A DNA stretch of 64,000 bases from Patescibacteria group bacterium. Lineage in GTDB: Bacteria; Patescibacteriota; Minisyncoccia; Phycocordibacterales; UBA1550. Where the stretch lies: contig JBBTWP010000004.1 in NCBI GenBank assembly GCA_038062675.1, positions 6,751 to 70,750 of the forward strand, written 5' to 3'. Shown here in pieces: positions 26,123 through 44,773 of the stretch. Position numbers and translations under genes: made by a program. Below the pieces are notes generated by a model. That model worked only from the letters and a program-made list of their open reading frames with translations, was not told where the DNA came from and searched no databases. Each line of letters begins with the position of its first letter. Position 1 is the stretch's first letter.

Positions 26123-27568
26123 TTATTTATAGTATACCGCACTTGGGTCTTTGAGGCGAAATGCGACAGAGAATGGGATATTAGTTTTTTGTTCCAAGTT
26201 GGTGAGAGGGAGTTCAACGTCGGCAAACATGGGCGATGCCTGAAGTGACTTCTTGAAGCGATTAAGGCTGTCACGGTTGCCGGATACTCCAACGACGGAC
26301 ATTTTGTCACCGACCGTCCCTGTTGAAAAGGTTGAAATTATAATATTTTCGGTTACCCTTGAGAGAACTTCTTCAATGACACCGCTCCAGACTGGCGTTT
26401 CTTTTAAGATTGCTTCACCTGCTTGAGTCATTCCATTTGTGTGGGTGATCATGGCTTCTTTTTGAATAAGTTCCGGTGGAACAGAATAGGAAGACAATGT
26501 GCTTATGGTTTTTACTGCATTCTGAGAAAGAAAGAGTACAAACAAATATGCACCAAGGTATGCCACCATGAAAAAAATAGAGACGCCAATGGTGATGTTT
26601 CGAAATAGAACCATAAAAATTGACGCTTTCTGGTAAGCGTAAGCCTCTTCGGTTCCTACAGGGAGGAGGCTAATGAGGTTGTCGCGCCCTTCGGGGATTT
26701 GTCCGCGAATGAGGGCGCCAAGTGGGATAAGCCATTTTGCCTTTGGGGCTGTAAGGGCGGGATGTTCTGCGTAGTCGTCGCGAATATGAGCCTCCATAAT
26801 GGCTTGCTCAATAATAGGTGTTTTTGAGTCGGACTCAAGGAAGCTTTTTATGTTTCGTACTTCACGAGCAACACGCTCTTCTGGTACGGAAGCTAGGGGG
26901 AGTGTTCGGGCAAAACGAAGTGAACCATTTTTGACGCTAAAAACTGTTGTTCCATCGGGAAATTTTTCAGTAAGGAGCGTCGTTTGGTTTGGGGGGAGTT
27001 TGATTGAGCGGGCGATACTGGCAAGGTGAGACTCTAGTGCCACCATTTTCCATCCAGCCTTATCGAGAGCCTCTACATAACCTTGAGCAACGGTGCGATC
27101 GATGGTTGAAAGAAGAATCTCGTTTGTTCCGTGAGTATCAAAAACGCGCTCCCAGTCGAGGTAGGCACTCTCTGTTTTTATGGGGAGTTGCAAGCTTATG
27201 GCAAGACGCATTGCTTCTGGTATGCGTGTGTCACCAACGCTTTTTGGAAACGAAAAGATACGAGAATAGATTTTGTTGTCGGGAATAGAGACAATTGCAT
27301 AATTGGTGTCAATTTTTATCTTTGTTCGGAGTAGCTGGAGTGTTTTTGCGAGAAGGTCTTTGTCTATGACTACTCCGTCCGCAATAATATTTGAAGGGAT
27401 GGGTTCCTCTACGAGTATGAGCTCGTCGTGCGGCGCGAGGTTCTTTTCTTTGTTTTTTTTATGGGAGAGCTTTTTAGGGGCGCGAAAGAAAGCAATGCGG
27501 ATGAGGGAGTCGCTAATTTCGATTCCAACAACATTTTTTTTCTGCGTAAGTAAATTTAATATGTTCAT
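26123..27568 (-). CDS. pilM: Type IV pilus assembly protein, PilM (actin-like ATPase fold) fused to a PilN-like TM + periplasmic domain
   Basis: N-terminal VVGIEISDSLIRIAFF ... and overall length fit PilM. A TM helix (ITIGVSIFFMVAYLGAYLFVLFL) follows, then a PilN-like C-terminal domain. Start placed at MNILNLL. Confidence 0.7.
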   Translation of the reverse strand: MNILNLLTQKKNVVGIEISDSLIRIAFFRAPKKLSHKKNKEKNLAPHDELILVEEPIPSNIIADGVVIDKDLLAKTLQLLRTKIKIDTNYAIVSIPDNKIYSRIFSFPKSVGDTRIPEAMRLAISLQLPIKTESAYLDWERVFDTHGTNEILLSTIDRTVAQGYVEALDKAGWKMVALESHLASIARSIKLPPNQTTLLTEKFPDGTTVFSVKNGSLRFARTLPLASVPEERVAREVRNIKSFLESDSKTPIIEQAIMEAHIRDDYAEHPALTAPKAKWLIPLGALIRGQIPEGRDNLISLLPVGTEEAYAYQKASIFMVLFRNITIGVSIFFMVAYLGAYLFVLFLSQNAVKTISTLSSYSVPPELIQKEAMITHTNGMTQAGEAILKETPVWSGVIEEVLSRVTENIIISTFSTGTVGDKMSVVGVSGNRDSLNRFKKSLQASPMFADVELPLTNLEQKTNIPFSVAFRLKDPSAVYYK

Positions 27569-27721
27569 GTGCAATTTGTTACCAATTCATTATACCAAGT
27601 TTTTAAAGAGCATGCTATACTTTTTGAGAAGAAAGCGTTATTGATAATTTTAAAATAAAATTTTTATGATAAGTTCACGATTGTTTTCTGAAACCTTAGT
27701 CTTATTATACTAATCGACACT

Positions 27722-30205: not shown

Positions 30206-30222
30206 GAATAATATTTGTAAAA

Positions 30223-30606
30223 ATGGAAGCACAAAAACAAAAAACTATTCTTTTGGTGGAAGACGACAAAGCGCTTAATCGTGCGGTGATGTTTAAGCTT
30301 GAGCAAAAGGGACACAAAGTCATCTCAACCATGCGTGCCGAGGATGCGCTGGATATTCTCAAAAAAGAATCCGAACATATTGATATTATTTGGCTGGATA
30401 TTCTTTTGCCCGGCATGAACGGCATTGAATTTTTGGAAGAAATTCGCAAGCGCGAAGAAGGGAAAGATAAAAAAGTAGTTGTTTGCTCGGTTTCTGGGCG
30501 TGCGGACTCAAAAGGGGTTGCGTATGAGCTCGGCGTGGTTGATTATTTAGTGAAAAGCGATTATGATTTGAATACTCTTGTCGAGAAGGTTGTGAGTTAT
30601 GCGTAG
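30223..30606 (+). CDS. Single-domain response regulator (CheY-like receiver)
   Basis: LLVEDD acidic pocket, phospho-acceptor D in IWLDILLPGMNG, conserved S/T and K. No output domain. Confidence 0.88.
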   Translation: MEAQKQKTILLVEDDKALNRAVMFKLEQKGHKVISTMRAEDALDILKKESEHIDIIWLDILLPGMNGIEFLEEIRKREEGKDKKVVVCSVSGRADSKGVAYELGVVDYLVKSDYDLNTLVEKVVSYA

Positions 30607-30625
30607 GTTTTTAGACTCTTAAATT

Positions 30626-31006
30626 ATGGATACTAACAAGAAAAAAATAGTAATTGTGGAGGACGATGATCATATTTCAAAAGTATATGAGATAAAGTTC
30701 GCCAAAGAAAATGTAACCACTGTTGTTGCGCGTGACGGTGAGGAGGGTGTGGCGAAAATCAAATCAGAAAAACCGGACATGATTTTACTTGACCTCATGG
30801 TTCCCAAGAAAGATGGATTCGCGGTGCTTGAAGAAATAAAGAAAATTCCAGAGCTCGCCAAGATTCCTGTTATGGTTCTCTCAAACCTTGGTCAAAAGGC
30901 TGACCAAGAACGTGCCATGGCACTTGGTGCAAATGAATATTTGGTCAAGGTTGATTACCCCATTCAGGAAGTAATCAACAAGGTCAAGGGGTACTTGGGG
31001 TTGTAG
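30626..31006 (+). CDS. Single-domain response regulator (CheY-like receiver)
   Basis: VIVEDDD, phospho-acceptor D in ILLDLMVPKKDG, then LSNLG ... K. No output domain. Confidence 0.88.
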   Translation: MDTNKKKIVIVEDDDHISKVYEIKFAKENVTTVVARDGEEGVAKIKSEKPDMILLDLMVPKKDGFAVLEEIKKIPELAKIPVMVLSNLGQKADQERAMALGANEYLVKVDYPIQEVINKVKGYLGL

Positions 31007-31249: not shown

Positions 31250-31942
31250 ATGATTTCATCAATAAACATGGCAGAGAAGCGCAAAGACGGTTTTACTCTT
31301 CTCGAACTTTTAATCGTTATTTCGATTATCGCGATTTTGTCAGTAGCACTTGTGCTGGTCTTGGATCCCGCAGAAACTTTAAAGAAGTCACGTGACTCAC
31401 AGCGTCTTTCGGATTTAAGTACCATGAAAACAGCAATCGCGCTCTATCTCACGAGTACGACAACTCCGTATTTGGGAGCTGCAACAGCAGGGGCTTTGAA
31501 TAATACTAATTGCAAAGCAACGCCATCTGCCGCAACCGCTAAGGTTATGTACTCGCTCGTTTCAACCAGTGCTATTACCGATACAACACTTGACGCAGCT
31601 TCGGCCTCGGCAGCCGTTCAAGTTGCAACACCATCGTTAACAAATGGTGCAGGATGGATTCCTGTTATGTTTGACAATTTAACTGGTGGATCTCCAATCT
31701 CCAACATGCCTCTCGATCCCGTTAACACCGTGACCGCACTTGGGGCTGTCGCAAGCACTGATCTTGTATACCGATATGCATGTTCAGTAACTCCGTTGGC
31801 ATTTGAGCTTGGAGCACAACTTGAAAGTATTGCGTATACGTCAACTGATAATAAGAAGTCAACTGATGGTGGCAATAATGACAACTACTACGAAGTTGGT
31901 ACAAATCTGAGAATTCTTGATGGCGCAACGAACCAATACTAA
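31250..31942 (+). CDS. Type IV pilin (prepilin with class III signal; major-pilin candidate 1)
   Basis: MISSINMAEKRKDG|FTLLELLIVISIIAIL: G-1, F+1, E+5 and a hydrophobic alpha1-N helix. Ala/Thr/Ser-rich globular part with two Cys. Confidence 0.85.
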   Translation: MISSINMAEKRKDGFTLLELLIVISIIAILSVALVLVLDPAETLKKSRDSQRLSDLSTMKTAIALYLTSTTTPYLGAATAGALNNTNCKATPSAATAKVMYSLVSTSAITDTTLDAASASAAVQVATPSLTNGAGWIPVMFDNLTGGSPISNMPLDPVNTVTALGAVASTDLVYRYACSVTPLAFELGAQLESIAYTSTDNKKSTDGGNNDNYYEVGTNLRILDGATNQY

Positions 31943-31967
31943 ATCCTTATTAATTAATTCACTATTT

Positions 31968-32717
31968 ATGATTTCACTTATCACCGCAAATGAAGAAAAG
32001 CGCAAGAATGGATTTACCCTCCTTGAGCTCTTGATTGTTATTTCAATCATCGCCATTTTATCCATCGCCCTTGTGTTCTTGCTCAACCCTGCGGAAACAC
32101 TTAAGAAAGCTCGTGATGCACAGCGCATCTCAGACTTGAAGACTATTAAGACTGCCCTCGGCGTTATGCTTACAGCAAGCTCAACGCCAAGTTTGGATAG
32201 TTTCACCGCACAAGCAACAGCAGTATGTCTCACTGCAACAACAGCAGCAGGAGCGACTACATTGTCTACGGCTCCGAAAATTAGATATAGTGCCAATACT
32301 GCGCCTACTCTGACTTCTGCCACCCCTGGAGCTGATGCTGCAAGTACTGCAACAGCTTTTATTTCCGCTGCTTCTGGCTCAACGGCAGGAAAAGTTGATG
32401 CTACGGGCTGGATCCCAGTAAATTTGAAAGCGTTGACAGGAGGTACACCAATTTCAGCTTTTCCTATCGACCCTGTTAATACTGTCAGTTCTACTGCTAC
32501 TGTCACAGATCTTGTTTATCGCTACGCATGTCAAAACGGAACGACAGCGTCAGTTGGTTCAGGGAAGCCAGCATATATTTTTGAGATTGATGCTGTACTT
32601 GAAAGTAACGCGTATACTCAGGATGATAACAAGATGTCAAAAGATGGCGGAGACAATGACTCTTACTATGAGTCAGGGAATAGTTTGAATCTCTTGCCTG
32701 CTGCAGGTGCATTCTAG
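31968..32717 (+). CDS. Type IV pilin (major-pilin candidate 2, tandem paralog)
   Basis: MISLITANEEKRKNG|FTLLELLIVISIIAIL. Start at 31968 mirrors the first pilin (both begin ATGATTTCA). Shares the C-terminal DPVNT ... DLVYRYAC motif with its neighbour. Confidence 0.85.
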   Translation: MISLITANEEKRKNGFTLLELLIVISIIAILSIALVFLLNPAETLKKARDAQRISDLKTIKTALGVMLTASSTPSLDSFTAQATAVCLTATTAAGATTLSTAPKIRYSANTAPTLTSATPGADAASTATAFISAASGSTAGKVDATGWIPVNLKALTGGTPISAFPIDPVNTVSSTATVTDLVYRYACQNGTTASVGSGKPAYIFEIDAVLESNAYTQDDNKMSKDGGDNDSYYESGNSLNLLPAAGAF

Positions 32718-32817: not shown

Positions 32818-33513
32818 ATGATGGATATAATAGAGAATATGTATTTACGGGTTTTGTTTCAGTTTACACATCCAGAGCCGCAGGTGATTGTGGGCATAAT
32901 TTGGCTTTTGATTGTAGTTGTCGCACTTTTTCGTTACATAGAATTTTCGTTTTTTACACGGGTTTCGTGGAAATGGCTTGTGGTTGTGGCTGTTGTTCTC
33001 CGTATTGGTTACGGTGCAACTCTAACATGGCTGCAATATGCACAATGGGAGAGTAGTTCATTTACTCAAACTTTTTTGACTCAACCGCTTTCAAAAGAAG
33101 CGCCACTTCCACTTCTTCTTGAATGGGTGCGTCCCTCTCTGGAGCAACCATTGGGATATTTTATTTTTTATGTATTCGGACGCTTTTGGATTAACATCAT
33201 AATCATTTTAGGGCTAGCAGGATTTTTTGCAGCACTCCTCAAGCTTCGTGCGTATTATCGTCCTTGGAACTTTAAAGAAGGAGAGATCTTGGCAATTACA
33301 CTTTCTCTCCTTGTGTCGGGGTGGCCGGGGGTTATCGTCCTCCTGCCCCTTGCGTTTATTTTTGCAATTATTTTCTCAGTCATCTCTTCTACTTTTTACG
33401 GAGTTTCGCGAATTTATCTAACCCCTGCGTTTTTGGTTGCCGCTCCTGTTGCGCTCCTGTACGGGGCAGCGATCCTTAAGTTCGTTGGTTTGTACGCTCT
33501 ACTCAAAATCTAA
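32818..33513 (+). CDS. Polytopic integral membrane protein (about 6-7 TM segments), function unknown
   Basis: Continuous hydrophobic segments. Located between the pilin genes and pilB, where a prepilin peptidase might be expected, but no GxGD-type motif is visible. Confidence 0.5.
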   Translation: MMDIIENMYLRVLFQFTHPEPQVIVGIIWLLIVVVALFRYIEFSFFTRVSWKWLVVVAVVLRIGYGATLTWLQYAQWESSSFTQTFLTQPLSKEAPLPLLLEWVRPSLEQPLGYFIFYVFGRFWINIIIILGLAGFFAALLKLRAYYRPWNFKEGEILAITLSLLVSGWPGVIVLLPLAFIFAIIFSVISSTFYGVSRIYLTPAFLVAAPVALLYGAAILKFVGLYALLKI

Positions 33514-33623: not shown

Positions 33624-35333
33624 ATGCATATTGGACAAGAAAAGCTAAAAGAAATATTGCTTGAATCCGGACTCGTGAGCGATGAGGATTTTGAATATGC
33701 TACTGCAGAGGCTCGGCGCAGCGGACAGTCGCTTTCTAATGTCTTGGTTGGAGAAGGCAAAATTTCTGAAGATTATTTTACCGAACTCCTTGCTCCCTAT
33801 TATGGTGTTCAGGTTGTGAATCTCAAAAAAGAAACTATAGACCATGAGATTTTGGAGCTTATTCCTGAAATATACGCGAAGTCAAAGAATATTGTATTGT
33901 TTTTTTATGATAAAGAGAAAGGTATTGCAAAACTTGCCATGCTCGACCCCTTTGACTACGATACTATTGAGTATGTGCGGGCGAAGCTTGATGCGTGGGT
34001 CGAACCTTATCTCTCGACAGTCGCAAGTGTTCGTTATGGGCTCAAGCAATACAGCACAAAAATCGGTGTTGGCTTTGAACAAATCATTTCTGAAAATGTT
34101 GAACAGTCGCTTTCTGTTGCTGAAGAAAAAGATCTTTCAAAAACAGCTGCGTCGGTGCCTATTGTTACCATCCTTGATAATGTTATCGAGCATGCAGTTA
34201 CTTTAAATGCATCCGATATTCATTTTGAGCCCCTTGAGCATGAACTTTTGGTGCGTTTTCGTGTCGATGGCATCATGCAGGAGGTGGTGAGTCTCCCGAA
34301 AGCAATTGCTCCTGTTTTGGTCGCGCGCGTAAAAATCCTCGGAAGTCTTCAGATTGACGAACACCGCACCCCTCAGGATGGACGTTTTCGTTTTGATATG
34401 GACGATGGATCAAATATTGATTTACGCGTAAATATCATGCCGATTTTCCACGGGGAGAAAGTGGAAATGCGTCTCTTGAAGAGCTCTGCGCGACCACTGA
34501 CGCTCAAAGACCTTGGTTTTTCGGATGCAAATACCGCAGTCCTTGTAAATGAAGTCAAAAAACCCCACGGTATGATTTTAGTGACGGGGCCAACAGGACA
34601 TGGAAAAACTACAACACTGTATGCGGTGTTGCATATTCTCAATAAACCATCCGTGAACATTACAACCATTGAGGATCCTATTGAGTATGAGTTTCCGCGC
34701 GTAAATCAAACACAAGTAAACCAGAAAGCGGGGATTACGTTTGCAAATGGACTTCGCGCGCTTTTGCGTCAAAATCCCGACATCATTATGGTGGGTGAAA
34801 TCCGTGATAATGAGACGGTTGAAATTGCAATTCATGCCGCGCTTACGGGGCACCTTGTGCTGTCATCACTTCACACCAATGATGCCCCCTCTGCTATCCC
34901 ACGCCTTTTGGATATGGGTGCGCCGGCGTTCCTGTTGTCTTCAACTATCAACATGGTTATCGCTCAGCGTCTTGTGCGACGTATTTGTGCGTCGTGTACC
35001 GAGTCATATCCTGTAAGCCCAGAAATGGCGCGCCTTCTCAAGGCGCAAATCGAGCTGGCGGGGACCACAAATAGTAATGTTCCGGCGAGCTTGTTTCGTG
35101 GTAAGGGGTGCAAGGTATGCGGGAATTCCGGATATCAGGGGCAGATTGGTATTTTCGAGCTTTTGCGGGTTACTGAATCAATTCGTGCATTGATTTTGGA
35201 CGAAGCATCCATTCCGGAAGTGCGAAAGAAAGCAATTGAAGAGGGGATGATCACGATGTTTGAAGACGGGCTCGACAAGGTTGAGCGGGGAGTTACGACT
35301 GTGGAGGAGGTGCTCAGGGTAGTAAAAGAATAG
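33624..35333 (+). CDS. pilB: Type IV pilus assembly (extension) ATPase, PilB/GspE family
   Basis: N-terminal MshEN-like domain, Walker A GPTGHGKTTT, Asp box, Walker B DIIMVGEIRD, His box, tetracysteine motif (CASC ... CKVCGNSG). Confidence 0.92.
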   Translation: MHIGQEKLKEILLESGLVSDEDFEYATAEARRSGQSLSNVLVGEGKISEDYFTELLAPYYGVQVVNLKKETIDHEILELIPEIYAKSKNIVLFFYDKEKGIAKLAMLDPFDYDTIEYVRAKLDAWVEPYLSTVASVRYGLKQYSTKIGVGFEQIISENVEQSLSVAEEKDLSKTAASVPIVTILDNVIEHAVTLNASDIHFEPLEHELLVRFRVDGIMQEVVSLPKAIAPVLVARVKILGSLQIDEHRTPQDGRFRFDMDDGSNIDLRVNIMPIFHGEKVEMRLLKSSARPLTLKDLGFSDANTAVLVNEVKKPHGMILVTGPTGHGKTTTLYAVLHILNKPSVNITTIEDPIEYEFPRVNQTQVNQKAGITFANGLRALLRQNPDIIMVGEIRDNETVEIAIHAALTGHLVLSSLHTNDAPSAIPRLLDMGAPAFLLSSTINMVIAQRLVRRICASCTESYPVSPEMARLLKAQIELAGTTNSNVPASLFRGKGCKVCGNSGYQGQIGIFELLRVTESIRALILDEASIPEVRKKAIEEGMITMFEDGLDKVERGVTTVEEVLRVVKE

Positions 35334-35546: not shown

Positions 35547-36770
35547 ATGGCAATATTTACTTATGAAGCATATGATGGTTCCGGCGCTGTTCTTCGGGGG
35601 GAGTACGAGGGCTCTTCTCAAGACGAGGTGTCGCAGTATCTTTTCAAGAGAAGTCTTACGCCCATTTCTATCACCATGCTTTCTGGTAAGCACGGTGGCA
35701 TGCAGAAGTTTCTATCTTCTTCCCCGTTTGAGAAACTTGATGCTGTTGATGTAATGTTCTTGGTACGAAACCTCGCCACGACCGTTAAGGCTGGGCTTTC
35801 ATTGATGGAGGCACTCGATATTCTTATTGCCGATGCAGAGAAAAACATTTTAAAGAAAGTGCTCAGGGAGGTGCAGGCCATGGTCAAAAATGGGCAGCAG
35901 CTTTCTGCAGGGTTTGAAGCGTATGCTAGTTCATTCCCTCCTGTTTTTATAGGAATGCTGAAAGCCGGAGAAGGCTCTGGTCAACTCGACAAAACACTTG
36001 CGGAGCTCGGTCGTTATTTGGGTAAAGAATATGCTCTACGGAGCAAAATAAAATCTGCACTGATGTATCCGGTTATTCTACTTGTTGCATCTACGGGAGT
36101 GGTGACGCTTCTTCTTATGTTTGTGTTGCCGCGGCTTACCAAGGCGTTTTTAGCGAGTGGCGTTGAGCTCCCCCTTCTTACTAAATTCTTTCTTGCTTTA
36201 TCCAATGCACTTACGTGGAGTTATGCGCTCGATGGTGTAGTGTTTGTGGTGGCGTTGTGGTTCTTTTTGTATTTTCGTACAACACAACTTGGGAAAAGAT
36301 TTTTCTTTTTTACTATGTCGCATGCACCCGTGGCAAGGGATTTGGTAAAAAAGGTCGCGCTCGTACGTTTCTCTCGCACGCTCTCAAATCTTATTGGTAG
36401 TGGACTTTCGGTTGTGGAAGCACTCGACCTATCGTCGCAATCGATTGGGAATCGGACATATACACTTGCGCTCAATCAGGTAATTATGGAAGTCAAGACC
36501 GGTAGCCCTATTTCCGGCGCACTTGAAAAATTTCCAAAACTTTTCCCGCGCATGCTCGTGAGTTTGGTGGTGGTGGGGGAACGTACGGGAACACTTGGAC
36601 AGATTCTTTCCACTTTTGCCGACTTTTATGAAGAGGAAGTTGACGGCAAGCTTAAAGACCTGACCGCTGCTCTGGAGCCGATACTCTTGCTCCTTATGGG
36701 AGTTTTGGTGGGGTCGATTGCCGTTTCTATTATTCTCCCTATCTATCAACTCGTGGGTAATTTTGTCTAA
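35547..36770 (+). CDS. pilC: Type IV pilus platform protein, PilC/GspF family
   Basis: Two GspF-type repeats and three TM segments. Typical length (407 aa) and position after pilB. Confidence 0.9.
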   Translation: MAIFTYEAYDGSGAVLRGEYEGSSQDEVSQYLFKRSLTPISITMLSGKHGGMQKFLSSSPFEKLDAVDVMFLVRNLATTVKAGLSLMEALDILIADAEKNILKKVLREVQAMVKNGQQLSAGFEAYASSFPPVFIGMLKAGEGSGQLDKTLAELGRYLGKEYALRSKIKSALMYPVILLVASTGVVTLLLMFVLPRLTKAFLASGVELPLLTKFFLALSNALTWSYALDGVVFVVALWFFLYFRTTQLGKRFFFFTMSHAPVARDLVKKVALVRFSRTLSNLIGSGLSVVEALDLSSQSIGNRTYTLALNQVIMEVKTGSPISGALEKFPKLFPRMLVSLVVVGERTGTLGQILSTFADFYEEEVDGKLKDLTAALEPILLLLMGVLVGSIAVSIILPIYQLVGNFV

Positions 36771-36777
36771 ACTTAAT

Positions 36778-37245
36778 ATGCACATACATACAACATCATC
36801 AGGATTTTCAATGTTTGAACTTTTGATTGTCTTGAGTATTGTTGCTGTTTTGGGAGGCGGCGGAGTTGGATTTTATCAAAATTTTTCAAAAGATGTTGAG
36901 CTCAAGACTACGATGCGAGTGATAAATGCCGACTTGCGCACTGCACGAGCAAAGTCTATGGCGCGACAAGACGACCTAAAGTGGGGGGTGCATTTTGTGA
37001 ATGATGGCGCAAATCCACATTATTACGAACTTTTCTCAACTCCTACCGATTATGCGAATGCAAGTATGTCCGTGAGCGCAACCACCACTCTTTCTAAAGG
37101 TCTTACATTTTCTGATCCGAGCTCGGGAACAAAAGACATTATTTTTTACAAAGTCGCCGGCACTACGACAGCGTCCACCGTGGGTGTGACCTCAAGCGCC
37201 GGCACACAGACGCTCACTATTTCGGCGTTGGGGACAATTTATTGA
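36778..37245 (+). CDS. Minor pilin / pseudopilin (prepilin-type N-terminus)
   Basis: MHIHTTSSG|FSMFELLIVLSIVAVLGG with G-1, F+1, E+5. Start at 36778; the track's extension overlaps pilC. Confidence 0.75.
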   Translation: MHIHTTSSGFSMFELLIVLSIVAVLGGGGVGFYQNFSKDVELKTTMRVINADLRTARAKSMARQDDLKWGVHFVNDGANPHYYELFSTPTDYANASMSVSATTTLSKGLTFSDPSSGTKDIIFYKVAGTTTASTVGVTSSAGTQTLTISALGTIY

Positions 37246-37246
37246 T

Positions 37247-37768
37247 ATGTATAAAAAAGTTTCCAATTACGCCTTTATTGATAGCCAAAATCTCAATCTT
37301 GCAATTCAGGATCAGGGATGGAAGCTTGACTTTACCCGTTTTCGAGTATACCTCAAAGAAAAATATGGTGTGACAAAAGCCTTTCTGTTTATAGGGCACA
37401 TCGAAGGCAATAATCATTTGTATATTTCTCTACAGTCAGCTGGGTTTCTTTGTGTTTTTAAACCGACACTCGAGTACAAGGATGGTACAACCAAAGGCAA
37501 CTGCGATGCGGAATTGGTTCTTCATGCGATGATAGAGTATCCTAACTACGACAAAGCGATAATCGTTACCGGAGATGGGGATTTTTATTGTTTAGCCCAG
37601 CACTTGCTTGAAAAAGATAAATTGCAGGCAATTCTTATTCCCAATAAGTTGAAGTTCTCAGGACTTTTAAAGTTTAAGATATTTCGCCCTTATTTGCGAT
37701 TAATGAACGATTTAAAAGAGCTATTAAGGTATAAAAAGAAAAGGCCCTATGAGGACAAAACCTCATAG
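37247..37768 (+). CDS. NYN-domain (LabA/YacP-like, PIN-fold) predicted ribonuclease, paralog 1
   Basis: YAFIDSQNLNL ... KGNCDAELVL ... YDKAIIVTGDGDFYCL: the N-terminal Asp, central Asp and GDGDF acidic constellation of NYN domains. No signal peptide or TM segment. The ATG lies 2 nt after the pseudopilin stop. Confidence 0.8.
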   Translation: MYKKVSNYAFIDSQNLNLAIQDQGWKLDFTRFRVYLKEKYGVTKAFLFIGHIEGNNHLYISLQSAGFLCVFKPTLEYKDGTTKGNCDAELVLHAMIEYPNYDKAIIVTGDGDFYCLAQHLLEKDKLQAILIPNKLKFSGLLKFKIFRPYLRLMNDLKELLRYKKKRPYEDKTS

Positions 37769-37863
37769 GGGGGACTCTTCCGTTGGTGATAGACATAGTA
37801 TACACCTAACAAAAAATGTGTCAACGGGGTATAATGAAAAGAGGATATTTTGAAAAAACCATA

Positions 37864-38550
37864 ATGTTTAATATGCAACATCAAAAATTTAACACGAAAC
37901 ATCTTCTCCGCTCACGTGGCTCACTCCTGCTCGAACTCCTTCTTTCGATTTCTGTGCTCGCAATCATTCTTTCTTTGAGTGCTCAGACGATGCTTGTGAG
38001 TTTGCAGAGTGAAAAAGTTTCGGGCGAGCGGGATGTGGCTGTTGCGCTTGCCAATGAGACACTGGAGGCAGTGCGTGCGGTTGCGGACGAAAAGTGGGTG
38101 AATATTTATTCGCTTACCGGCAAGGGGTCAACTCATTATAAAACTGTGCAGTCTGGGAATGCATGGACATTGGCAACAGGGGACGAAACAATTGCGCTTA
38201 ACAACGCCTCATATACTCGCTATGTGGTAATTGAGAATGTGAATCGGTGTCTCGATGTCGAAGCGGGTGGGGGGCGTAACCTTGCCAGCACTACCGTCGG
38301 TTGCACTCCCTCTACCAACTACCTCGATGACCCTTCCACCCAAAAAGCGACCGTGACGGTGTCGTGGACAGGAGGCAACCCTATCGTCATTAGTGAGTAT
38401 TTTTTCAGGTGGCGAAACAAAGTGTGCAATCAGACTGGATGGACGGGAAATGGAGGTTCGGGGAACAGTGTGGTTTCCTGCACTGATACAACCTATGATA
38501 TTGCCGACTCTGCAATCTCTACTTCAACGGGGACACTTAGGCTTGAATAG
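37864..38550 (+). CDS. Pseudopilin-like protein (prepilin-type N-terminus)
   Basis: ...HLLRSRG|SLLLELLLSISVLAIIL with G-1 and E+5. Start uncertain (37864 or 37873; the track gives 37816). Confidence 0.65.
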   Translation: MFNMQHQKFNTKHLLRSRGSLLLELLLSISVLAIILSLSAQTMLVSLQSEKVSGERDVAVALANETLEAVRAVADEKWVNIYSLTGKGSTHYKTVQSGNAWTLATGDETIALNNASYTRYVVIENVNRCLDVEAGGGRNLASTTVGCTPSTNYLDDPSTQKATVTVSWTGGNPIVISEYFFRWRNKVCNQTGWTGNGGSGNSVVSCTDTTYDIADSAISTSTGTLRLE

Positions 38551-38632: not shown

Positions 38633-41600
38633 ATGTTAATGAATATAAAAAGGCAAATGATTTTGAAAAAAATTTTTGGATACGTCAAAAAATTTTCTAA
38701 ATTTAGTGTCGTTTTTTTGTTAATTGTAACTTTTGGGTTTGCGGATGTTGCAACAGTGGTTTTTGATGGGCTTGGTGCGCCAAAGTTGGCGCAGTGGACA
38801 GCAATCAAGAAAGCAGAAGCAGTGGCGCAGGGAGATGGAGAGATTATATACGGCGATAGTAATGCTAGTCTTGTAAGGAGAAGAGATTGGACAGGAACTT
38901 TCAGCGTGGAGTATGACACCCTTGCTGCTGGAACAGTAATTCGCCATGTTGTCATTAAAGCTTCACCGGTTAGGAATGAAATGATTGCCGGTATACAAAC
39001 CACTGCAGGCACGCTTTACATACAACGCTTTAATGGCACAAGTTGGTCCAATGAGTGGAATGTGACGGTTGGTGATGGAAATCTCCCTCGTTTTGACATC
39101 AGCTTCGAGGGCACTTCTGGAGATATGATGGTGGTGTATACAGGCAACACAGCCACTGACGGACAGGAACTGGTGTATAGAATTTGGAATGGCTCTACTT
39201 GGACTGTTGCGGCCAATTTGGGCTCAACGAGAACGACTGGCATTGTTGACGGTATAGCTATGGAGCGTCGCGGAGGCACTGATGAAATTGCGCTTGTGTA
39301 CGGAGACAGAAACTTCGACCTTTCGGCAAATTTTTGGGATGGTGCAACAAATGCATGGAAGGGGGAGCCGTCGGCAGCATTGGAAACAAGCTTGGCAAAA
39401 GTGGGAACCGCGACGACTCTAACTAACTTTTCTTTTGACCTTGAATTTGAATCCACATCCGGCGAGCTTTTGATTGTGTGGGGTGCTGATGCAGTGTTGG
39501 ACGGCAAGTATGTCACTCGTGGTGCTGGGCCGGCAGGCGCGTGGGGTTCTGTTACCACCAATACGGCTTTTCTTGAAGAGCCGACTGATGTGGAGCTTTC
39601 TGCCGACCCAAACTCAAATTACATTGCGTATGCGAATAGCTCGGATAACGGCGCAGACTCCGATGCCATAGTCTGGACGGGCACTGCGTGGGGGACGGCG
39701 TTTCAAGTTGACGCTTCAAACGACACGGTGGGTGCCGGAACAAGTAACAATGCGGTAAACTGGGTGACGAGTGGTGCCCAGACGCGTGCTGTGCTCACCT
39801 ACGACGATGCCAATGCAGCGGGTGTTGACTGGGCAGTATATAACAAAAATACCAATGCATGGGCTCTCCAAACCGACTGTACTACCGCTTGCTCGTCGCA
39901 ACCACTGAGTGGTGACGATAAGGTTCATCGTTTGCGACGCAATCCGTTTAATCAAGCTGAACTTCTTTTTTTGGGAGTAGATAACACTTCCGATTTATGG
40001 GTGAAAAAATTGGTCTTCGACGGAACTAATTTCACATGGTCAAATGCCGATGGCGGAGTAGCTCTTGAAACTGTGATATCGAGCGTTACCGGTTTTGCGG
40101 CAGATTTTGCATACAATAGGTACATTCCTCCTACGGTTACCACCACCCTTGCGACCGGCTCCGACCCTGCCGCCGCTACTATTGCCCCCGAAGCTGTAAC
40201 GACCGATGTAAATCAGTTTACTCTGCAGACAAGCAGTGGAACGGAAACAGTAACGTCGGTTACAGTGAATCTTTCAACCGGCAGCGGGGTGGATTCGCTT
40301 TATATTACTGATAATACCAATACGGTTTTGGGTTCAATAATCGCGCCGCTGTCGGGGGGCTCTAATGTGGTTGCCGTTTCGGGGATGTCAGCAGGTACAT
40401 CCGCCACAACATTCAAGGTTCGTGTTACTCCCCTGCCTCACAGTTTAATGCCAGCAGTGACGGGTGCAGCATACGCCATCACCGCACCCGTCACTGCATG
40501 GGCGGGGAATGCCACGACACACGCGGGGAGTGATACGAATACCAATGCACTTACAATTGACAATGCATCCCCTTCGGGAGCTACAAGCGCAAGTGGTACA
40601 GCAGGTGACGCAAAGGTAACACTCAACTGGACGACATCGGCGTCCACCGATTTTAGTCGCTCGGTGATGCTCCGGTGGACAGCATCAACGCCGAGTGCAG
40701 CGGTGCCCGAAGAGGGGACGGATTATGCGAATGGGAATACTGTTGGTAGTGGTTCAAAAATTGACTACAATACAGGAGCCAGTCCCATAGGTGTCGCCTT
40801 CGACTCCTCCACCAACTCTGTTTGGGTGGTGAATAGTGGTGGCAATACTGTCACCAAGCTCACCGCTGCCACTGGCGCTTTGGTGGGAACATATACAGTG
40901 GGAAATGCTCCTCGAGATGTCGCCTTCGACTCCTCCACCAACTCTGTTTGGGTGACGAATACTGGTGGTGGTTCCGGCAATACTGTCACCAAGCTCACCG
41001 CCGCCACCGGCGCCTTGGTGGGAACATATACAGTGGGAACTGGTCCTTTTGGTGTCGCGTTCGACTCCTCCACCAACTCTGTTTGGGTGGCGAATAATGG
41101 TAGTGGTTCCGGCAATACTGTCACCAAGCTCACCGCCGCCACCGGCGCCTTGGTGGGAACATATACAGTGGGAACTGGTCCTTTTGGTGTCGCGTTCGAC
41201 TCCTCCACCAACTCTGTTTGGGTGGCGAATAATGGTAGTGGTTCCGGCAATACTGTCACCAAGCTCACCGCCGCCACCGGCGCCTTGGTGGGAACATATA
41301 CAGTGGGAACTGGTCCTTTTGGTGTCGCGTTCGACTCCTCCACCAACTCTGTTTGGGTGGCGAATAATGGTAGTGGTTCCGGCAATACTGTCACCAAGCT
41401 CACCGCCGCCACCGGCGCCTTGGTGGGAACATATACGGTGGGAACTGGTCCTCGAGATATCGCCTTCGACTCCTCCACCAACTCTGTTTGGGTGGTAAAT
41501 AATGGTGGAAATACTGTCACTAAGCTCACCGCCGCCACCGGCGCTTTGGTGGGAACATATACGGTGGGAACCGGTCCCATAGATGTCGCCTTCGACTCCA

Positions 41601-43132
41601 CCACCAACTCTGTTTGGGTGGTGAATAATGGTGACGATACCGTCACCAAGCTCACCGCCGCCACCGGCGCTTTGGTGGGAACATATGCAGTGGGGGTCAG
41701 TCCCATTAGTGTTGCTTTCGACTCCTCCACCAACTCTGTTTGGGTGGTGAATAATGTTGGCGAAACCGTCAGCAAAGTGGATGCAGTGGGCGCCACGGTT
41801 GTCTGTGTCCGCACTGATGCTGCATCGACCGCCATTACCGACATCAACGGTGCCGGTGGCACCAGCTGTCTCACTACCGCCCTTACGAACGGCACCGCCT
41901 ACAGTTACAAAGTTTTCCAAAAAGACGCAAATGGCAACTATGACGCCGGTGTCGTGCCGACGGGTTCGCCGTTTACACCAGCTGCCATCACAACCACGCT
42001 TGCCACTGGTTCCGACCCTGCCGCGGCAACAATCGCCCCCGGAGCCGTCGCAACTGATGTTGATTTATTTACTTTGCAAACAAGCAGTGGAACGGAAACA
42101 GTAACTTCGGTGACGGTGAACCTTTCGACAAATAGTGGTATCGGTTTGCTCGCCATTACCGACAATGCAAACACTGTTTTGGGGTCGACTGCATCGCCGG
42201 TTACGGGTTCTAACGTTATTACGGTCTCAGGTATGTCAGCAGGTACCACGCTCACCACGTTTAAAGTCCGCGCCACACCTCTCAGTCATGCGCTGATGCC
42301 CGCACCTGCAGGCGGTGCGTACGCCATCACTGCGCCAGTGACAAGCTGGGCGGGAGCAAATACGCACGCAGGGAGTGATACAAACTCCAATGCGCTAACG
42401 ATTGACAACGGGTCGCCTGCTGGCACAACAGGCGCTGGCGCGGTAGCTGGGAACGCACAGGTCACGGTGAGCTGGACGAATCCTGCTGATGCTGATTTTC
42501 AAAAGGTAATTATTTATTGTAAGACCGCAAGCATCACTGAAACGCCAACAGAAGGATCTGATCCAACGGTGGACGTCGCCGCCTGCGACGCAACAGCACG
42601 TGTCAAGTATAATGGTTCAATAAGCCCGCAGATTATCACCGGCCTCACTAACGGTACGTTGTATTATTTTAGAATTTATGCGCGTGACACCAACGGTAAC
42701 TTTACCGCTATTGCATCTACACAGCAGGTTTCTGCTACGCCCGCGGCTGGAGGCGGACTCCCCGTTTCAGGGACACTCACCTCTGGGGTTTTTGACACAG
42801 GAACTGCTGATGGGGCGACGTTTAATTCTATTTTATGGAATGGAACCACTATCGGGACAGGAGCAGTACGCTTCCAGTTTTCGGCATCGAATAGTAGTAC
42901 AGGTCCATGGGACTATAACGGAGCAGGTTCAGGGACATGCGGGGCATTGGACTGGTTTAACCCCGGAGCTCTTGATACCGCTGTGGAGCTAAAGGGTTCT
43001 GGATGCGCAGCGCTTTGGAACAACAAACGATACTATCGTTACAAGGTACAGATTTGTTCCGCCGCAAATTGTACTGATGTTGGTGCTACTAGTCCTATTA
43101 TAAATAAAATTGTTGTCAGTTGGTCACCGTAA
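38633..43132 (+). CDS. Giant (1499 aa) membrane-anchored/secreted surface protein: N-terminal Trp-repeat propeller-like region, module A1, 8 YVTN-type beta-propeller repeats, module A2, C-terminal Ig/Fn3-like region. Candidate pilus-associated adhesin.
   Basis: N-terminal hydrophobic anchor (FSVVFLLIVTFGF). Seven W-containing repeats spaced 50-65 aa apart. Eight repeats of NTVTKLTAATGALVGTYTVGtGPxgVAFDSSTNSVWVaNnG match the 40-residue YVTN propeller repeat pattern. Encoded inside the minor-pilin operon. The exact start (38633 vs 38657) is uncertain. Confidence 0.85.
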   Translation: MLMNIKRQMILKKIFGYVKKFSKFSVVFLLIVTFGFADVATVVFDGLGAPKLAQWTAIKKAEAVAQGDGEIIYGDSNASLVRRRDWTGTFSVEYDTLAAGTVIRHVVIKASPVRNEMIAGIQTTAGTLYIQRFNGTSWSNEWNVTVGDGNLPRFDISFEGTSGDMMVVYTGNTATDGQELVYRIWNGSTWTVAANLGSTRTTGIVDGIAMERRGGTDEIALVYGDRNFDLSANFWDGATNAWKGEPSAALETSLAKVGTATTLTNFSFDLEFESTSGELLIVWGADAVLDGKYVTRGAGPAGAWGSVTTNTAFLEEPTDVELSADPNSNYIAYANSSDNGADSDAIVWTGTAWGTAFQVDASNDTVGAGTSNNAVNWVTSGAQTRAVLTYDDANAAGVDWAVYNKNTNAWALQTDCTTACSSQPLSGDDKVHRLRRNPFNQAELLFLGVDNTSDLWVKKLVFDGTNFTWSNADGGVALETVISSVTGFAADFAYNRYIPPTVTTTLATGSDPAAATIAPEAVTTDVNQFTLQTSSGTETVTSVTVNLSTGSGVDSLYITDNTNTVLGSIIAPLSGGSNVVAVSGMSAGTSATTFKVRVTPLPHSLMPAVTGAAYAITAPVTAWAGNATTHAGSDTNTNALTIDNASPSGATSASGTAGDAKVTLNWTTSASTDFSRSVMLRWTASTPSAAVPEEGTDYANGNTVGSGSKIDYNTGASPIGVAFDSSTNSVWVVNSGGNTVTKLTAATGALVGTYTVGNAPRDVAFDSSTNSVWVTNTGGGSGNTVTKLTAATGALVGTYTVGTGPFGVAFDSSTNSVWVANNGSGSGNTVTKLTAATGALVGTYTVGTGPFGVAFDSSTNSVWVANNGSGSGNTVTKLTAATGALVGTYTVGTGPFGVAFDSSTNSVWVANNGSGSGNTVTKLTAATGALVGTYTVGTGPRDIAFDSSTNSVWVVNNGGNTVTKLTAATGALVGTYTVGTGPIDVAFDSTTNSVWVVNNGDDTVTKLTAATGALVGTYAVGVSPISVAFDSSTNSVWVVNNVGETVSKVDAVGATVVCVRTDAASTAITDINGAGGTSCLTTALTNGTAYSYKVFQKDANGNYDAGVVPTGSPFTPAAITTTLATGSDPAAATIAPGAVATDVDLFTLQTSSGTETVTSVTVNLSTNSGIGLLAITDNANTVLGSTASPVTGSNVITVSGMSAGTTLTTFKVRATPLSHALMPAPAGGAYAITAPVTSWAGANTHAGSDTNSNALTIDNGSPAGTTGAGAVAGNAQVTVSWTNPADADFQKVIIYCKTASITETPTEGSDPTVDVAACDATARVKYNGSISPQIITGLTNGTLYYFRIYARDTNGNFTAIASTQQVSATPAAGGGLPVSGTLTSGVFDTGTADGATFNSILWNGTTIGTGAVRFQFSASNSSTGPWDYNGAGSGTCGALDWFNPGALDTAVELKGSGCAALWNNKRYYRYKVQICSAANCTDVGATSPIINKIVVSWSP
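40775..41785 (+). repeat. Tandem coding repeats (126-135 bp) encoding the YVTN blades; 40970-41420 is a perfect 135-bp x 3.3 array
   Basis: GGTTCCGGCAATACTGTCACC... recurs at 40970, 41105, 41240 and 41375 (exact 135-bp spacing). I saw no substitutions until about 41421. Confidence 0.9.
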
Positions 43133-43167: not shown

Positions 43168-43671
43168 ATGAAAAAAATACTCAATAATTATGCATATATA
43201 GATAGTCAAAACCTGAATCTTGGTATTCAGAAACTTGAATGGAAATTAGATTATCGGAAATTTAGGATATATCTTGCTGAAAAATACAGCGTTAAGAAGG
43301 CATATATGTTTATCGGTTTTGTTGCATTAAATCAATCGCTGTATGACAATCTCCAAGAAGCGGGATTTATTTTGAGATTCAAACCGACAGTTCCGGATGC
43401 TGACGGTAAAATTAAAGGCAACATAGATGCAGACATGGTTTTGCTTGCAACGCTTGAATTAAATGCTTATGACAAAGCGGTTATTGTTTCCAGTGATGGC
43501 GATTTTTATTCGCTCGTGCAGTATTTGCACGAGAATGGTAAATTAAGAGTTGTATTGAGCCCAGACATTAAAAATTGTTCAACGTTGCTTAAGCAGACAG
43601 CAAGAGAAAAGATATGGTTTATGAATGAATTGAGAAATAAACTTGAGTATAAAAAGAAAAGCACCGCTTAA
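43168..43671 (+). CDS. NYN-domain (LabA/YacP-like, PIN-fold) predicted ribonuclease, paralog 2
   Basis: YAYIDSQNLNL ... KGNIDADMVL ... YDKAVIVSSDGDFYSL. Colinear with paralog 1, with roughly half of the residues identical by eye. Visibly AT-rich. Confidence 0.8.
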   Translation: MKKILNNYAYIDSQNLNLGIQKLEWKLDYRKFRIYLAEKYSVKKAYMFIGFVALNQSLYDNLQEAGFILRFKPTVPDADGKIKGNIDADMVLLATLELNAYDKAVIVSSDGDFYSLVQYLHENGKLRVVLSPDIKNCSTLLKQTAREKIWFMNELRNKLEYKKKSTA

Positions 43672-43762
43672 GGATGAAACCTTAAACAGTACTTTCCCTA
43701 GAAATACATTTTAATTATATCAAATGGCTAAATTATGTCAAGCATCAAACAAGCACCGTAAT

Positions 43763-44287
43763 ATGAACATATTTTCTTACAAAAAAATACATACCGCACG
43801 TGGAGTCACGCTCCTTGAGCTTCTTATTTATGTGGCGGTGTTCTCGGGGATTGCGGTTGTGGTTGCTGATACCTTTCTCTCGATAGCAAAAGCACGCGGG
43901 CAGTCGGAGGCGCGCGCAGAGGTGAATTCCGCGATACGGTTTGCGACGGAGCTTGTTCGACAAGACTTAAAGGCGGCGACAGCGCTCGCCACACCCGCGT
44001 TGGGGACACCATCCGCGACTTTGGTTGCGACTGTAGCTGGGGCGACCGTCACCTATGACGTAGTTTCGGGACAGCTTCGTAGAAATGCTGTGGCGGTAAC
44101 CGGAAGTTTGATTTTTGTTGATACTCCTTCGTTTACACGGCTCGAGAACTATAACTCGGTGGTGGGGGTGACAGGGTTTGGTGCGACCACTACGGCAGTT
44201 TCGGTCTTGATGACCTTTCGATATAATGCTTCAAGCACCGACTGGACATACGCGGATACACTTCGCACGACCGTGACTTTGCGGTAG
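43763..44287 (+). CDS. Minor pilin / pseudopilin (prepilin-type N-terminus)
   Basis: MNIFSYKKIHTARG|VTLLELLIYVAVFSGIAVVV with G-1 and E+5. Start placed at 43763. Confidence 0.7.
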   Translation: MNIFSYKKIHTARGVTLLELLIYVAVFSGIAVVVADTFLSIAKARGQSEARAEVNSAIRFATELVRQDLKAATALATPALGTPSATLVATVAGATVTYDVVSGQLRRNAVAVTGSLIFVDTPSFTRLENYNSVVGVTGFGATTTAVSVLMTFRYNASSTDWTYADTLRTTVTLR

Positions 44288-44290
44288 ACT

Positions 44291-44773
44291 ATGGTTATGA
44301 TGAGATTTAATATAAAAAAAAGAAAATCGCAGGGCGGGGCAACACTTCCCACTGTTTTGGTCTTGACGATTTTAACGCTCACGGTTGCAGTGGGAATCAC
44401 CACTATTTCATTCACCGAATCTTTTATTTCAGAAAGTGGGGTGCAGTCATCCACCGCGCTCTTTTATGCCGAGGCAGGGACGCGGGATGCATTGACGAAA
44501 ATTGCACGCAACAAGGGGTATACCTGCGCTTCTGCCGATTATTGTTACAGTATTGAACTTGTTTCCGGTGGGTGTACAGGGTCTGTATTAGGATGCGCAC
44601 GGGTTTCGGTAAGTGCCGGAGCGGGGACTACTGCTGCGCCCAAAGTCGTTACCTCAAAGGGGATTGTAAAAACAAGCACACGAACACTTAGTGTAGATGT
44701 AATTCTCGATAGTGGGGCAGGGACAAATATTGGTCAGATTACTTCCGCCACAACGACGGAGTTGACCAACTAG
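44291..44773 (+). CDS. PilX-like minor pilus protein (hydrophobic N-terminus without E+5)
   Basis: KRKSQGGATLPTVLVLTILTLTVAVGITT resembles PilX_N-type N-termini. Last gene of the minor-pilin operon. Four Cys in the globular part. Confidence 0.5.
   Translation: MVMMRFNIKKRKSQGGATLPTVLVLTILTLTVAVGITTISFTESFISESGVQSSTALFYAEAGTRDALTKIARNKGYTCASADYCYSIELVSGGCTGSVLGCARVSVSAGAGTTAAPKVVTSKGIVKTSTRTLSVDVILDSGAGTNIGQITSATTTELTN

Follow-up and report, generated by a model that had tools for sequence, protein, structure and literature searches.

A two-propeller protein encoded among the minor pilins of a Patescibacteria type IV pilus cluster, a candidate pilus accessory protein with a conserved C-terminal domain

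The window analysed here is a stretch of 64,000 nucleotides (nt) from a Patescibacteria group bacterium (positions 6,751 to 70,750 of contig JBBTWP010000004.1, assembly GCA_038062675.1). It contains a type IV pilus cluster that surrounds an open reading frame (ORF) for a protein of 1499 amino acids (aa), identical to NCBI entry MEK7538815.1, a 'hypothetical protein' from a Patescibacteria metagenome-assembled genome (MAG). The ORF lies downstream of pilB-pilC, between the second and third of four minor-pilin genes, which encode a GspH/FimU-like protein, pp244, pp187 and pp160 (Table 1). The original prediction had placed the 1499-aa gene in a minor-pilin operon, and both the ORF and its flanking pilin genes were verified, as were the hydrophobic N-terminal leader and the beta-rich, Cys-containing C-terminal region that it described. 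It also proposed that the protein is a non-homologous functional analogue of PilY1, presented on the pilus for attachment to a host.

The C-terminal domain, hereafter Cterm, links the window protein to a large set of relatives. It is an all-beta domain that contains Cys, and its AlphaFold2 model is jelly-roll-like, with a predicted local distance difference test score (pLDDT) of 70.6, which is of moderate confidence. Fold comparison of this predicted model indicated resemblance to carbohydrate-binding modules, discoidin and the ephrin-receptor ligand-binding domain. Profile searches with Cterm found no Pfam family and no sequence relative in the PDB, and a word-indexed protein search with Cterm alone gave no match. 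All 67 unique complete genes encode the domain at the very end of the protein, and the last 12 residues follow the consensus P-x-V-D-D-V-I-V-N-W-S-P; P(-12) is found in 66/67 genes, W(-3) in 61/67 and P(-1) in 63/67, and a wider form of this terminal motif reads ...PxV(D/N)x(V/I)(I/V)VNWSP. The window protein has the features that define the family, namely NNKRY[YF]RYK, a terminal ...VNWSP and a gene located between pp244-type and pp187/pp160-type genes. Judged from sequence, Cterm is a signature of the proteins encoded in this minor-pilin operon slot.

Metagenomes were scanned by the Cterm motif [WHF][NQ]N[KR]RY[YFI]RY alone, by which 179 relatives were confirmed; the best 80 were kept, with 65 unique Cterm genes, and all ORFs of the scanned loci were labelled with hidden Markov models for each domain. 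The usual gene order was pilB-pilC-gspH-like-pp244, zero to four accessory genes, the Cterm gene, and then pp187-pp160-pilMN. A pp187- or pp160-type gene followed within 1.5 kb on the same strand in 46 (90%) of the 51 unique Cterm genes that had at least 700 bp of downstream sequence. Upstream, a separate pp244 gene was present within 8 kb of 18 of the 30 unfused Cterm genes with at least 1.5 kb of upstream sequence. Six Cterm genes were fused to a pp244 module, and one of these (L094) encodes a pilin, a YVTN propeller and Cterm. The linkage to pilin genes on which the original prediction depended recurs, therefore, both in the pp187/pp160 homologues after the Cterm gene and in the pilin fusions.

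Such fusions were also found with pp244, which belongs to a family specific to the candidate phyla radiation (CPR). A pp244 profile matched no family in Pfam or the PDB and its sole match was the pilin N-terminus. An exhaustive HMMER search with pp244 (E ≤ 1e-3) gave 1035 cluster representatives, and the best 150 were inspected. Among these, 106 were plain pilins of at most 260 aa and 41 were longer than 300 aa, ~25 of which end in Cterm. The pp244 and Cterm parts are joined nearly without linker in P0131 (356 aa), P0197, P0205, P0246 and P0251, and with variable inserts in P0127, P0130, P0155 (pilin, propeller and Cterm), P0187 and P0272. Inserts in the fused forms always lie between the pilin and Cterm. 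A class III signal and pilin helix together with cargo or Cterm were seen in P0007 (locus L008), P0155, P0131, L077, L094, L095 and L103. The first of these, an 802-aa protein of 'Ca. Wolfebacteria', combines a class III signal (G↓QILAE), a pp244 homologue, an eight-bladed propeller with 54% identity to that of the window protein and Cterm in one polypeptide, and downstream of its gene are homologues of pp187, pp160, PilMN, PilB, a pilin and PilC.

In other loci the parts are encoded separately. The Taylorbacteria locus L024 has the order PilMN, pilin, transmembrane (TM) protein, PilB (69% identity), PilC, GspH-like protein, pp244-like protein, a gene with beta-lactamase fold and a propeller protein with the A and FN3 modules described below. 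The Brennerbacteria locus L025 has a slot protein with a Gly-rich head followed by A-FN3-FN3-Cterm, and then pp187-, pp160- and PilMN-like genes. Both have the split arrangement of the window, one with a protein that carries the eight-bladed propeller and the other with the Gly-rich head. L059 and L063 encode a propeller protein of 1220-1353 aa, a ~227-aa TM protein and then a Cterm protein of 451-579 aa as separate genes. Giant slot proteins of 1194-1835 aa occur in L033, L043, L069, L071 and L075, with head and Cterm in separate neighbouring genes. Head domains are shuffled between loci. These comparisons indicate that the family architecture is a pp244-type minor pilin, a variable cargo and Cterm, as one polypeptide or as separate genes. 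The window holds the split version, with a pilin gene and a predicted Sec-exported cargo that has its own leader, and this cargo is unusually elaborate, with two propellers and a duplicated stalk. A frameshift artefact as the cause of the pp244/ORF split was rejected, since a stop, 82 nt and a ~65-aa leader homologous to those of other CPR surface proteins lie between the two, and also because the split order recurs in L024 and many metagenomic loci.

Two further arrangements were observed in related operons. L090:1-8051 has tandem giant genes (1220+ aa and 1338 aa), each with a terminal Cterm, and after them a pp160-type pilin gene. In many operons a membrane-anchored protein of the Beta-lactamase2 family (~316-324 aa; PF13354, E 1.4e-39 for L033) is encoded directly after pp244 (L024:8892-9866, L033:3445-4392, also L043, L069 and L071), followed downstream by a giant Sec-signal protein, a ~226-aa TM protein and a Cterm protein. 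This gene is absent from the window, and its serine-hydrolase fold has no obvious role in a pilus.

The leader of the window protein has a basic stretch as well as a hydrophobic helix at aa ~21-37, and AxA-like sites occur twice, as GFA↓D after aa 37 and as AVA↓Q after aa 65. It has no G-x4-E prepilin motif and is predicted to be of the Sec type and not a prepilin (class III) signal. The leaders of P0001-type CPR surface proteins (...PPKIQEARA↓DVATGDG) align with it, and comparison of ...AIKKAEAVA↓QGDGEIIYG in the window with ...PKIQEARA↓DVATGDGKIIYG in P0001 shows that they are homologous. A long conserved leader was noted in many CPR surface proteins, where a hydrophobic helix and then ...SWIFSGWPQIW(Q)NPP.PPKIQEAxA stand immediately ahead of the mature domain (N-termini of P0001, P0004-P0006, P0080, P0083, P0091, P0103, P0104, P0107, P0109, P0114 and P0116). 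Another leader (..KFFKFSVIFFFIAVFAFSN..) is common to giant pilus-slot proteins, and that of the window protein (38633-38827) resembles both types. These shared long leaders may be a lineage-specific sorting signal.

After the leader follows a Trp-rich beta-propeller. Its AlphaFold2 model, made from a 41-sequence alignment, has a pLDDT of 86.7 and a predicted template modelling score (pTM) of 0.81, and its 32 strands form eight four-stranded sets. The original prediction counted seven Trp motifs at 50-65 aa spacing; these motifs and their spacing stand, but the seven-bladed propeller drawn from them does not, as an eighth, degenerate motif at aa 82-91 had been missed. Fold comparison of the model indicated that it resembles PLL-type propeller lectins, among other folds, and a Pfam search found no RCC1 match in the window protein.

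The middle part consists of two copies of a module A, each followed by a fibronectin type III (FN3) domain. A1 and A2 share 62% identity over 223 aa, in which the start of the FN3 domain is included. The duplication had been recognized from the sequence as two copies of a ~180-aa module, but each copy is a ~155-aa domain plus FN3. Profile searches of module A against Pfam and PDB sequences found no relative. The A-FN3 unit is widespread in Sec-exported surface proteins of Patescibacteria/CPR, and A is always followed by FN3. The second FN3 domain of the window protein (aa 1274-1356) scores 18.9 bits against PF00041, where the cut-off is 25, and homologous modules in P0074, P0076 and P0096 carry PF00041.

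A second, YVTN-type propeller sits inside the first FN3 domain. P0071, a 58%-identical relative, has the architecture propeller-A-FN3-Cterm, and its residues 324/326 are contiguous where the window protein has ~345 extra residues; the two FN3 halves abut in all other homologues too. The insertion is similar to PDB 1l0q (E 2e-18), TIGR03866 (E 2e-24) and YncE (E 3.5e-9); the TIGR03866 and YncE matches are far below the whole-family cut-offs and so represent similarity at the level of repeats only. TIGR02276 itself did not appear in the NCBIfam output for the window protein. Residues 705-1052 are therefore assigned as a YVTN-type propeller from sequence, and fold and blade number are predicted; of the two propellers that had been proposed, the N-terminal one has in addition a confident structural model. 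The eight YVTN repeats described before are present in the window, but their number is not fixed. At the DNA level the region is a tandem repeat of 135 bp with 6.9 copies (score 1363), and repeats 3-5 are 99-100% identical. P0278, another assembly of the window protein (1446 aa), has one 45-aa repeat fewer (aa 780-824) and two mismatches elsewhere. Because of these near-identical repeats and the shorter P0278, the repeat number of 7 versus 8 is either polymorphic or assembly-dependent, by copy-number variation or assembly collapse. A third record (P0277) begins within YVTN repeat 6.

Detectable homologues of the eight-bladed propeller (n=69) are nearly all from Patescibacteria and are typically ~650 aa long. 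The closest, P0001 (79% identity), has Sec-signal proteins and no pilins as neighbours. In Saccharibacteria, homologues of ~650 aa are encoded in a conserved four-gene surface cluster (L001:8104-12573 and L002:8098-12483) without pilins within 10 kb, which includes a protein with WxLIP_PGBD(DUF916) and LysM (E 6.8e-7). A secreted protein of ~235 aa in this cluster shares the C-terminal ~150-aa domain of the propeller protein, and the four-gene arrangement recalls the WxL cell-surface clusters of Firmicutes. In a Hainich groundwater MAG with P0004, the minor-pilin slot holds a 775-aa protein with a CLIPPER (PF01345) match (L004:2659-4986, also L007), and the 8-blade-propeller protein is encoded 3 kb beyond this slot, after ligA.

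The window differs from the related loci by two paralogous NYN-domain genes (37247-37768 and 43168-43671) that bracket the pair of pp244 and the ORF. Their products share 53% aa identity and match Pfam NYN with E 4e-12 and 1e-15. In both genes a GC-rich hairpin (37745-37770 and 43654-43699) comes after the terminal, conserved ...YKKK tail. None of the ~100 related loci has a NYN gene at the equivalent place, and the two genes look like window-specific insertions. That they are the ends of a mobile cassette was rejected, as neither inverted nor direct DNA repeats were found other than the coding similarity of the two genes. Further upstream, between pilM/N and the pilins (27722-31006), the window encodes a PAS/HAMP-type sensor histidine kinase and two single-domain response regulators, which may be pilus regulators. 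Between the pilin genes and pilB lies a gene for a 231-aa multi-TM protein (32818-33513) with homologues at the equivalent place in L024, L039, L047, L079 and L097; it has no Pfam match and is not recognisable as an A24 prepilin peptidase. NCBI names pp187 'type II secretion system protein'.

Table 1. Domains of the 1499-aa protein and type IV pilus genes of the window (positions of the window)
Feature	Position	Strand	Remarks
Whole gene	38633..43132	+	Leader, 8-blade propeller, A1, FN3a (YVTN propeller inserted), A2, FN3b, Cterm
Leader, aa 1-65	38633..38827	+	Sequence inspection; AlphaFold2 helix aa 2-35
8-bladed Trp-rich beta-propeller, aa 66-497	38828..40123	+	W/F-x-G-x-x-W per blade; no Pfam family
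Module A1, aa 498-652	40124..40588	+	~155-aa uncharacterised domain
FN3a N-terminal half, aa 653-704	40589..40744	+	Contiguous with C-terminal half in homologues
YVTN-type beta-propeller insertion, aa 705-1052	40745..41788	+	8 repeats of 42-45 aa
FN3a C-terminal half, aa 1053-1115	41789..41977	+	Homologue alignment
Module A2, aa 1116-1268	41978..42436	+	Paralogue of A1
FN3b, aa 1269-1372	42437..42748	+	Sub-threshold Pfam fn3; homologues carry PF00041
Cterm, aa 1373-1499 (~127 aa)	42749..43129	+	Jelly-roll-like; NNKRYYRYK motif; ends ...SPIINKIVVSWSP-COOH
PilM/PilN fusion	26123..27574	-	
Two paralogous (major) pilin genes	31250..32717	+	N_methyl motif
PilB ATPase	33624..35333	+	
PilC platform protein	35547..36770	+	
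GspH/FimU-like minor pilin (G↓FSMFE)	36718..37245	+	N_methyl, weak GspH match; position conserved
pp244, 244-aa minor pilin	37816..38550	+	Class III signal G↓SLLLE; CPR-specific family
pp187 minor pilin (G↓VTLLE)	43724..44287	+	Homologue directly 3' of Cterm gene in most related loci
pp160 minor pilin	44291..44773	+	PilX/GspK-like, no Glu5; faint PilX_N match; kept in related loci

The closest functional parallel is PilC/PilY1, a protein with a type I signal in which the N-terminus is variable and the C-terminus conserved (bioRxiv 10.64898/2026.09.18.752573). PilC's final 12 residues, the 'plug', dock on the tip minor pilin PilK by beta-strand augmentation, and a fusion of PilK with the plug bypasses PilC (bioRxiv 10.64898/2026.09.18.752573). 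Like PilC/PilY1 of Neisseria, Pseudomonas and Myxococcus, the window protein is a large non-pilin protein with a predicted Sec-type signal that is encoded among the core minor pilins, and it combines a variable N-terminal with a conserved C-terminal part. Cterm, for its part, is always terminal, its last 12 residues are near-invariant and it occurs naturally fused to a minor pilin. However, the conserved C-terminal module is here a ~125-aa domain of jelly-roll-like fold instead of a propeller, and it is the variable part that contains the propellers. The pilin in the fusions is of pp244 type with Glu5, not PilK/PilX-like, and the organism is a monoderm-type CPR bacterium. The PilC/PilY1 signature (PF05567/IPR008707) was not found in the window protein, and PilY1 was not among the 60 best fold matches of the eight-bladed propeller. 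Since this signature is absent, 'non-homologous' was the correct term: the window protein is not a member of the PilC/PilY1 family, and by analogy it may work like one.

Propeller- and jelly-roll-bearing minor pilins of CPR bacteria have already been published for one Saccharibacterium, N. lyticus TM7x, where the beta-propeller minor pilin PilX2 is needed for efficient host binding and PilX1 has a jelly-roll (PMC11623550). The propeller of PilX2 is 7-bladed and made of RCC1 repeats, in contrast to the family-less 8-bladed propeller and the YVTN propeller of the window protein. Furthermore, PilX1 and PilX2 are described as pilins onto which a domain is grafted, whereas in the window pilin and cargo protein are separate. 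Streptococcus sanguinis has modular type IV pilins, PilB with a von Willebrand factor A module and PilC with a lectin module, which are located at the tip with partner minor pilins (PMC8179133, PMC9934059). The fused relatives (P0007, P0131, L094 and others) are like these in that a module is grafted on a pilin moiety in a monoderm, although the modules are unrelated in sequence. The window protein itself has neither a class III signal nor a pilin moiety, and it is in evolutionary terms a split form of a modular pilin, not a modular pilin in the strict sense. Its 42-45-aa YVTN repeats have significant similarity to YVTN/NHL propellers such as the Methanosarcina mazei S-layer protein 1l0q, YncE and the designed Pizza proteins, but the propeller is nested in an FN3 domain of a pilus-operon protein, has three near-identical repeats and differs in copy number (7 or 8) between assemblies. 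The searchable literature yielded no account of this operon slot, of the Cterm signature or of the series of fused and split forms in other CPR lineages.

We favour the explanation, with a probability of roughly 0.65, that the gene encodes a non-pilin, Sec-exported type IV pilus accessory protein in the role of PilC/PilY1. After export, and presumably cleavage of the leader, Cterm would dock on the minor-pilin priming complex, most likely on the head of the upstream minor pilin pp244. PilB, PilC and PilMN would then polymerise the major pilin beneath this complex, so that the protein is lifted to the pilus tip. The A-FN3 modules would form a stalk for the two beta-propellers, and these would be a variable ligand-binding head, with glycans or proteins of a host cell or surface as its probable targets. 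The natural fusions make it most likely, by the Rosetta-stone argument, that the cargo protein is physically associated with pp244 or the minor-pilin complex. Cterm is the probable site of contact because it is conserved while the heads vary, and because it is always terminal. In type IVa pili and the type II secretion system (T2SS), four core minor pilins prime assembly and finish at the tip, from which we infer display of the window protein at that place. An adhesive role of the propellers is suggested by the propeller pilin PilX2 of TM7x, by its jelly-roll pilin PilX1 and the rhamnose-sensitive binding reported alongside them (PMC11623550) and by the resemblance of the eight-bladed propeller to PLL-type lectins. 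The PilY1-like part of the original prediction is thus supported by the synteny of Cterm and the pilin fusions, and adhesion and host attachment remain putative.

Several observations weigh against this explanation. The eight-bladed propeller family occurs mostly outside pilus loci, and the propeller alone is not specific for pili. The operon is interrupted by the two NYN genes, which is seen in the window only. The loci of the scan were chosen by a motif of the same domain and confirmed against the window sequence, and the sample represents one CPR clade. The Cterm model was built from five sequences and three of its five models were poor. Moreover, the predicted Cterm fold class would suit a lectin equally, so that Cterm could be the ligand-binding part, and an uncleaved leader may keep the protein on the membrane. 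An alternative that we consider unlikely is that the protein is a cell-surface adhesin that is co-regulated with the pilus and not mounted on it, tethered by its signal anchor or bound to the wall, with Cterm as a lectin that is the adhesive cargo in the pilin fusions. The resemblance of Cterm to carbohydrate-binding folds agrees with this, as do the lectin-like interpretation of the PilX1 jelly-roll in TM7x, the hydrophobic leader without a clear cleavage site and the minimal members that consist of a pilin and Cterm, in which Cterm is the sole extra domain. Still, Cterm is conserved across very divergent lineages while the heads vary, which agrees more with an anchor or structural module than with a host-specific binder. 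Inserts always lie between the pilin and Cterm, and the near-invariant terminal motif closes the protein. A free-standing lectin would not need adjacency to pp187/pp160, yet this adjacency was found in 46 of 51 loci.

The minor pilins are similar to T2SS pseudopilins (the GspH match and the NCBI name of pp187), and several loci encode one or more giant Sec-signal slot proteins. This could imply a T2SS-like pseudopilus, in which the large operon-encoded proteins are substrates that are pushed through the wall or S-layer and released. We regard this as improbable, because covalent fusion of cargo to pilin in the relatives is incompatible with release. In addition, major pilins and PilM/N are encoded, as in pilus systems, and pili of CPR bacteria have been observed by cryo-electron tomography and act in host binding (PMC11623550). 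Chance is the least credible explanation, with only a very small probability: an ordinary S-layer or cell-wall protein would have come to lie in the pilus operon by accident or through a recent insertion, of which the NYN genes would be one case. YVTN repeats are indeed a typical feature of S-layer proteins in archaea (1l0q), P0001 as the closest propeller homologue is encoded in a pilin-free cluster, and NYN genes flank the pair of pp244 and the ORF. However, dozens of unrelated metagenomic loci have kept this position, and pilin fusions exist.

Beyond the window, the pilus accessory role proposed above can be extended to the whole family. We tentatively suggest, at somewhat less than even odds, that Cterm is a CPR-wide docking adaptor of the pilus tip, an independently arisen counterpart of the PilC/PilY1 plug, that mounts interchangeable and fast-evolving giant heads. 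The heads seen are 8-blade propellers, YVTN propellers of varying blade number, Gly-rich domains and A-FN3 stalks, either fused to the pilin or separate. The natural series of fused and split forms parallels the engineered PilK-plug fusion in Neisseria and offers a system for probing how non-pilin proteins are mounted on pili. The window protein is furthermore an example of rapid diversification, by a putative change in blade copy number and by a domain inserted inside another domain.

For the question of how hosts are recognised and held by uncultivated CPR/Patescibacteria, the sole experimental foothold is Saccharibacteria TM7x, in which a propeller-bearing minor pilin contributes to host binding. 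The locus and its ~100 relatives indicate that Parcubacteria-type lineages keep a slot in their minor-pilin operon in which the heads are highly variable and the protein that closes the slot carries Cterm. Candidate host-specificity determinants can be mined from metagenomes with Cterm as a simple signature, and if Cterm is indeed a docking adaptor, the host-recognition proteins of uncultivated episymbionts could be found by this sequence tag.

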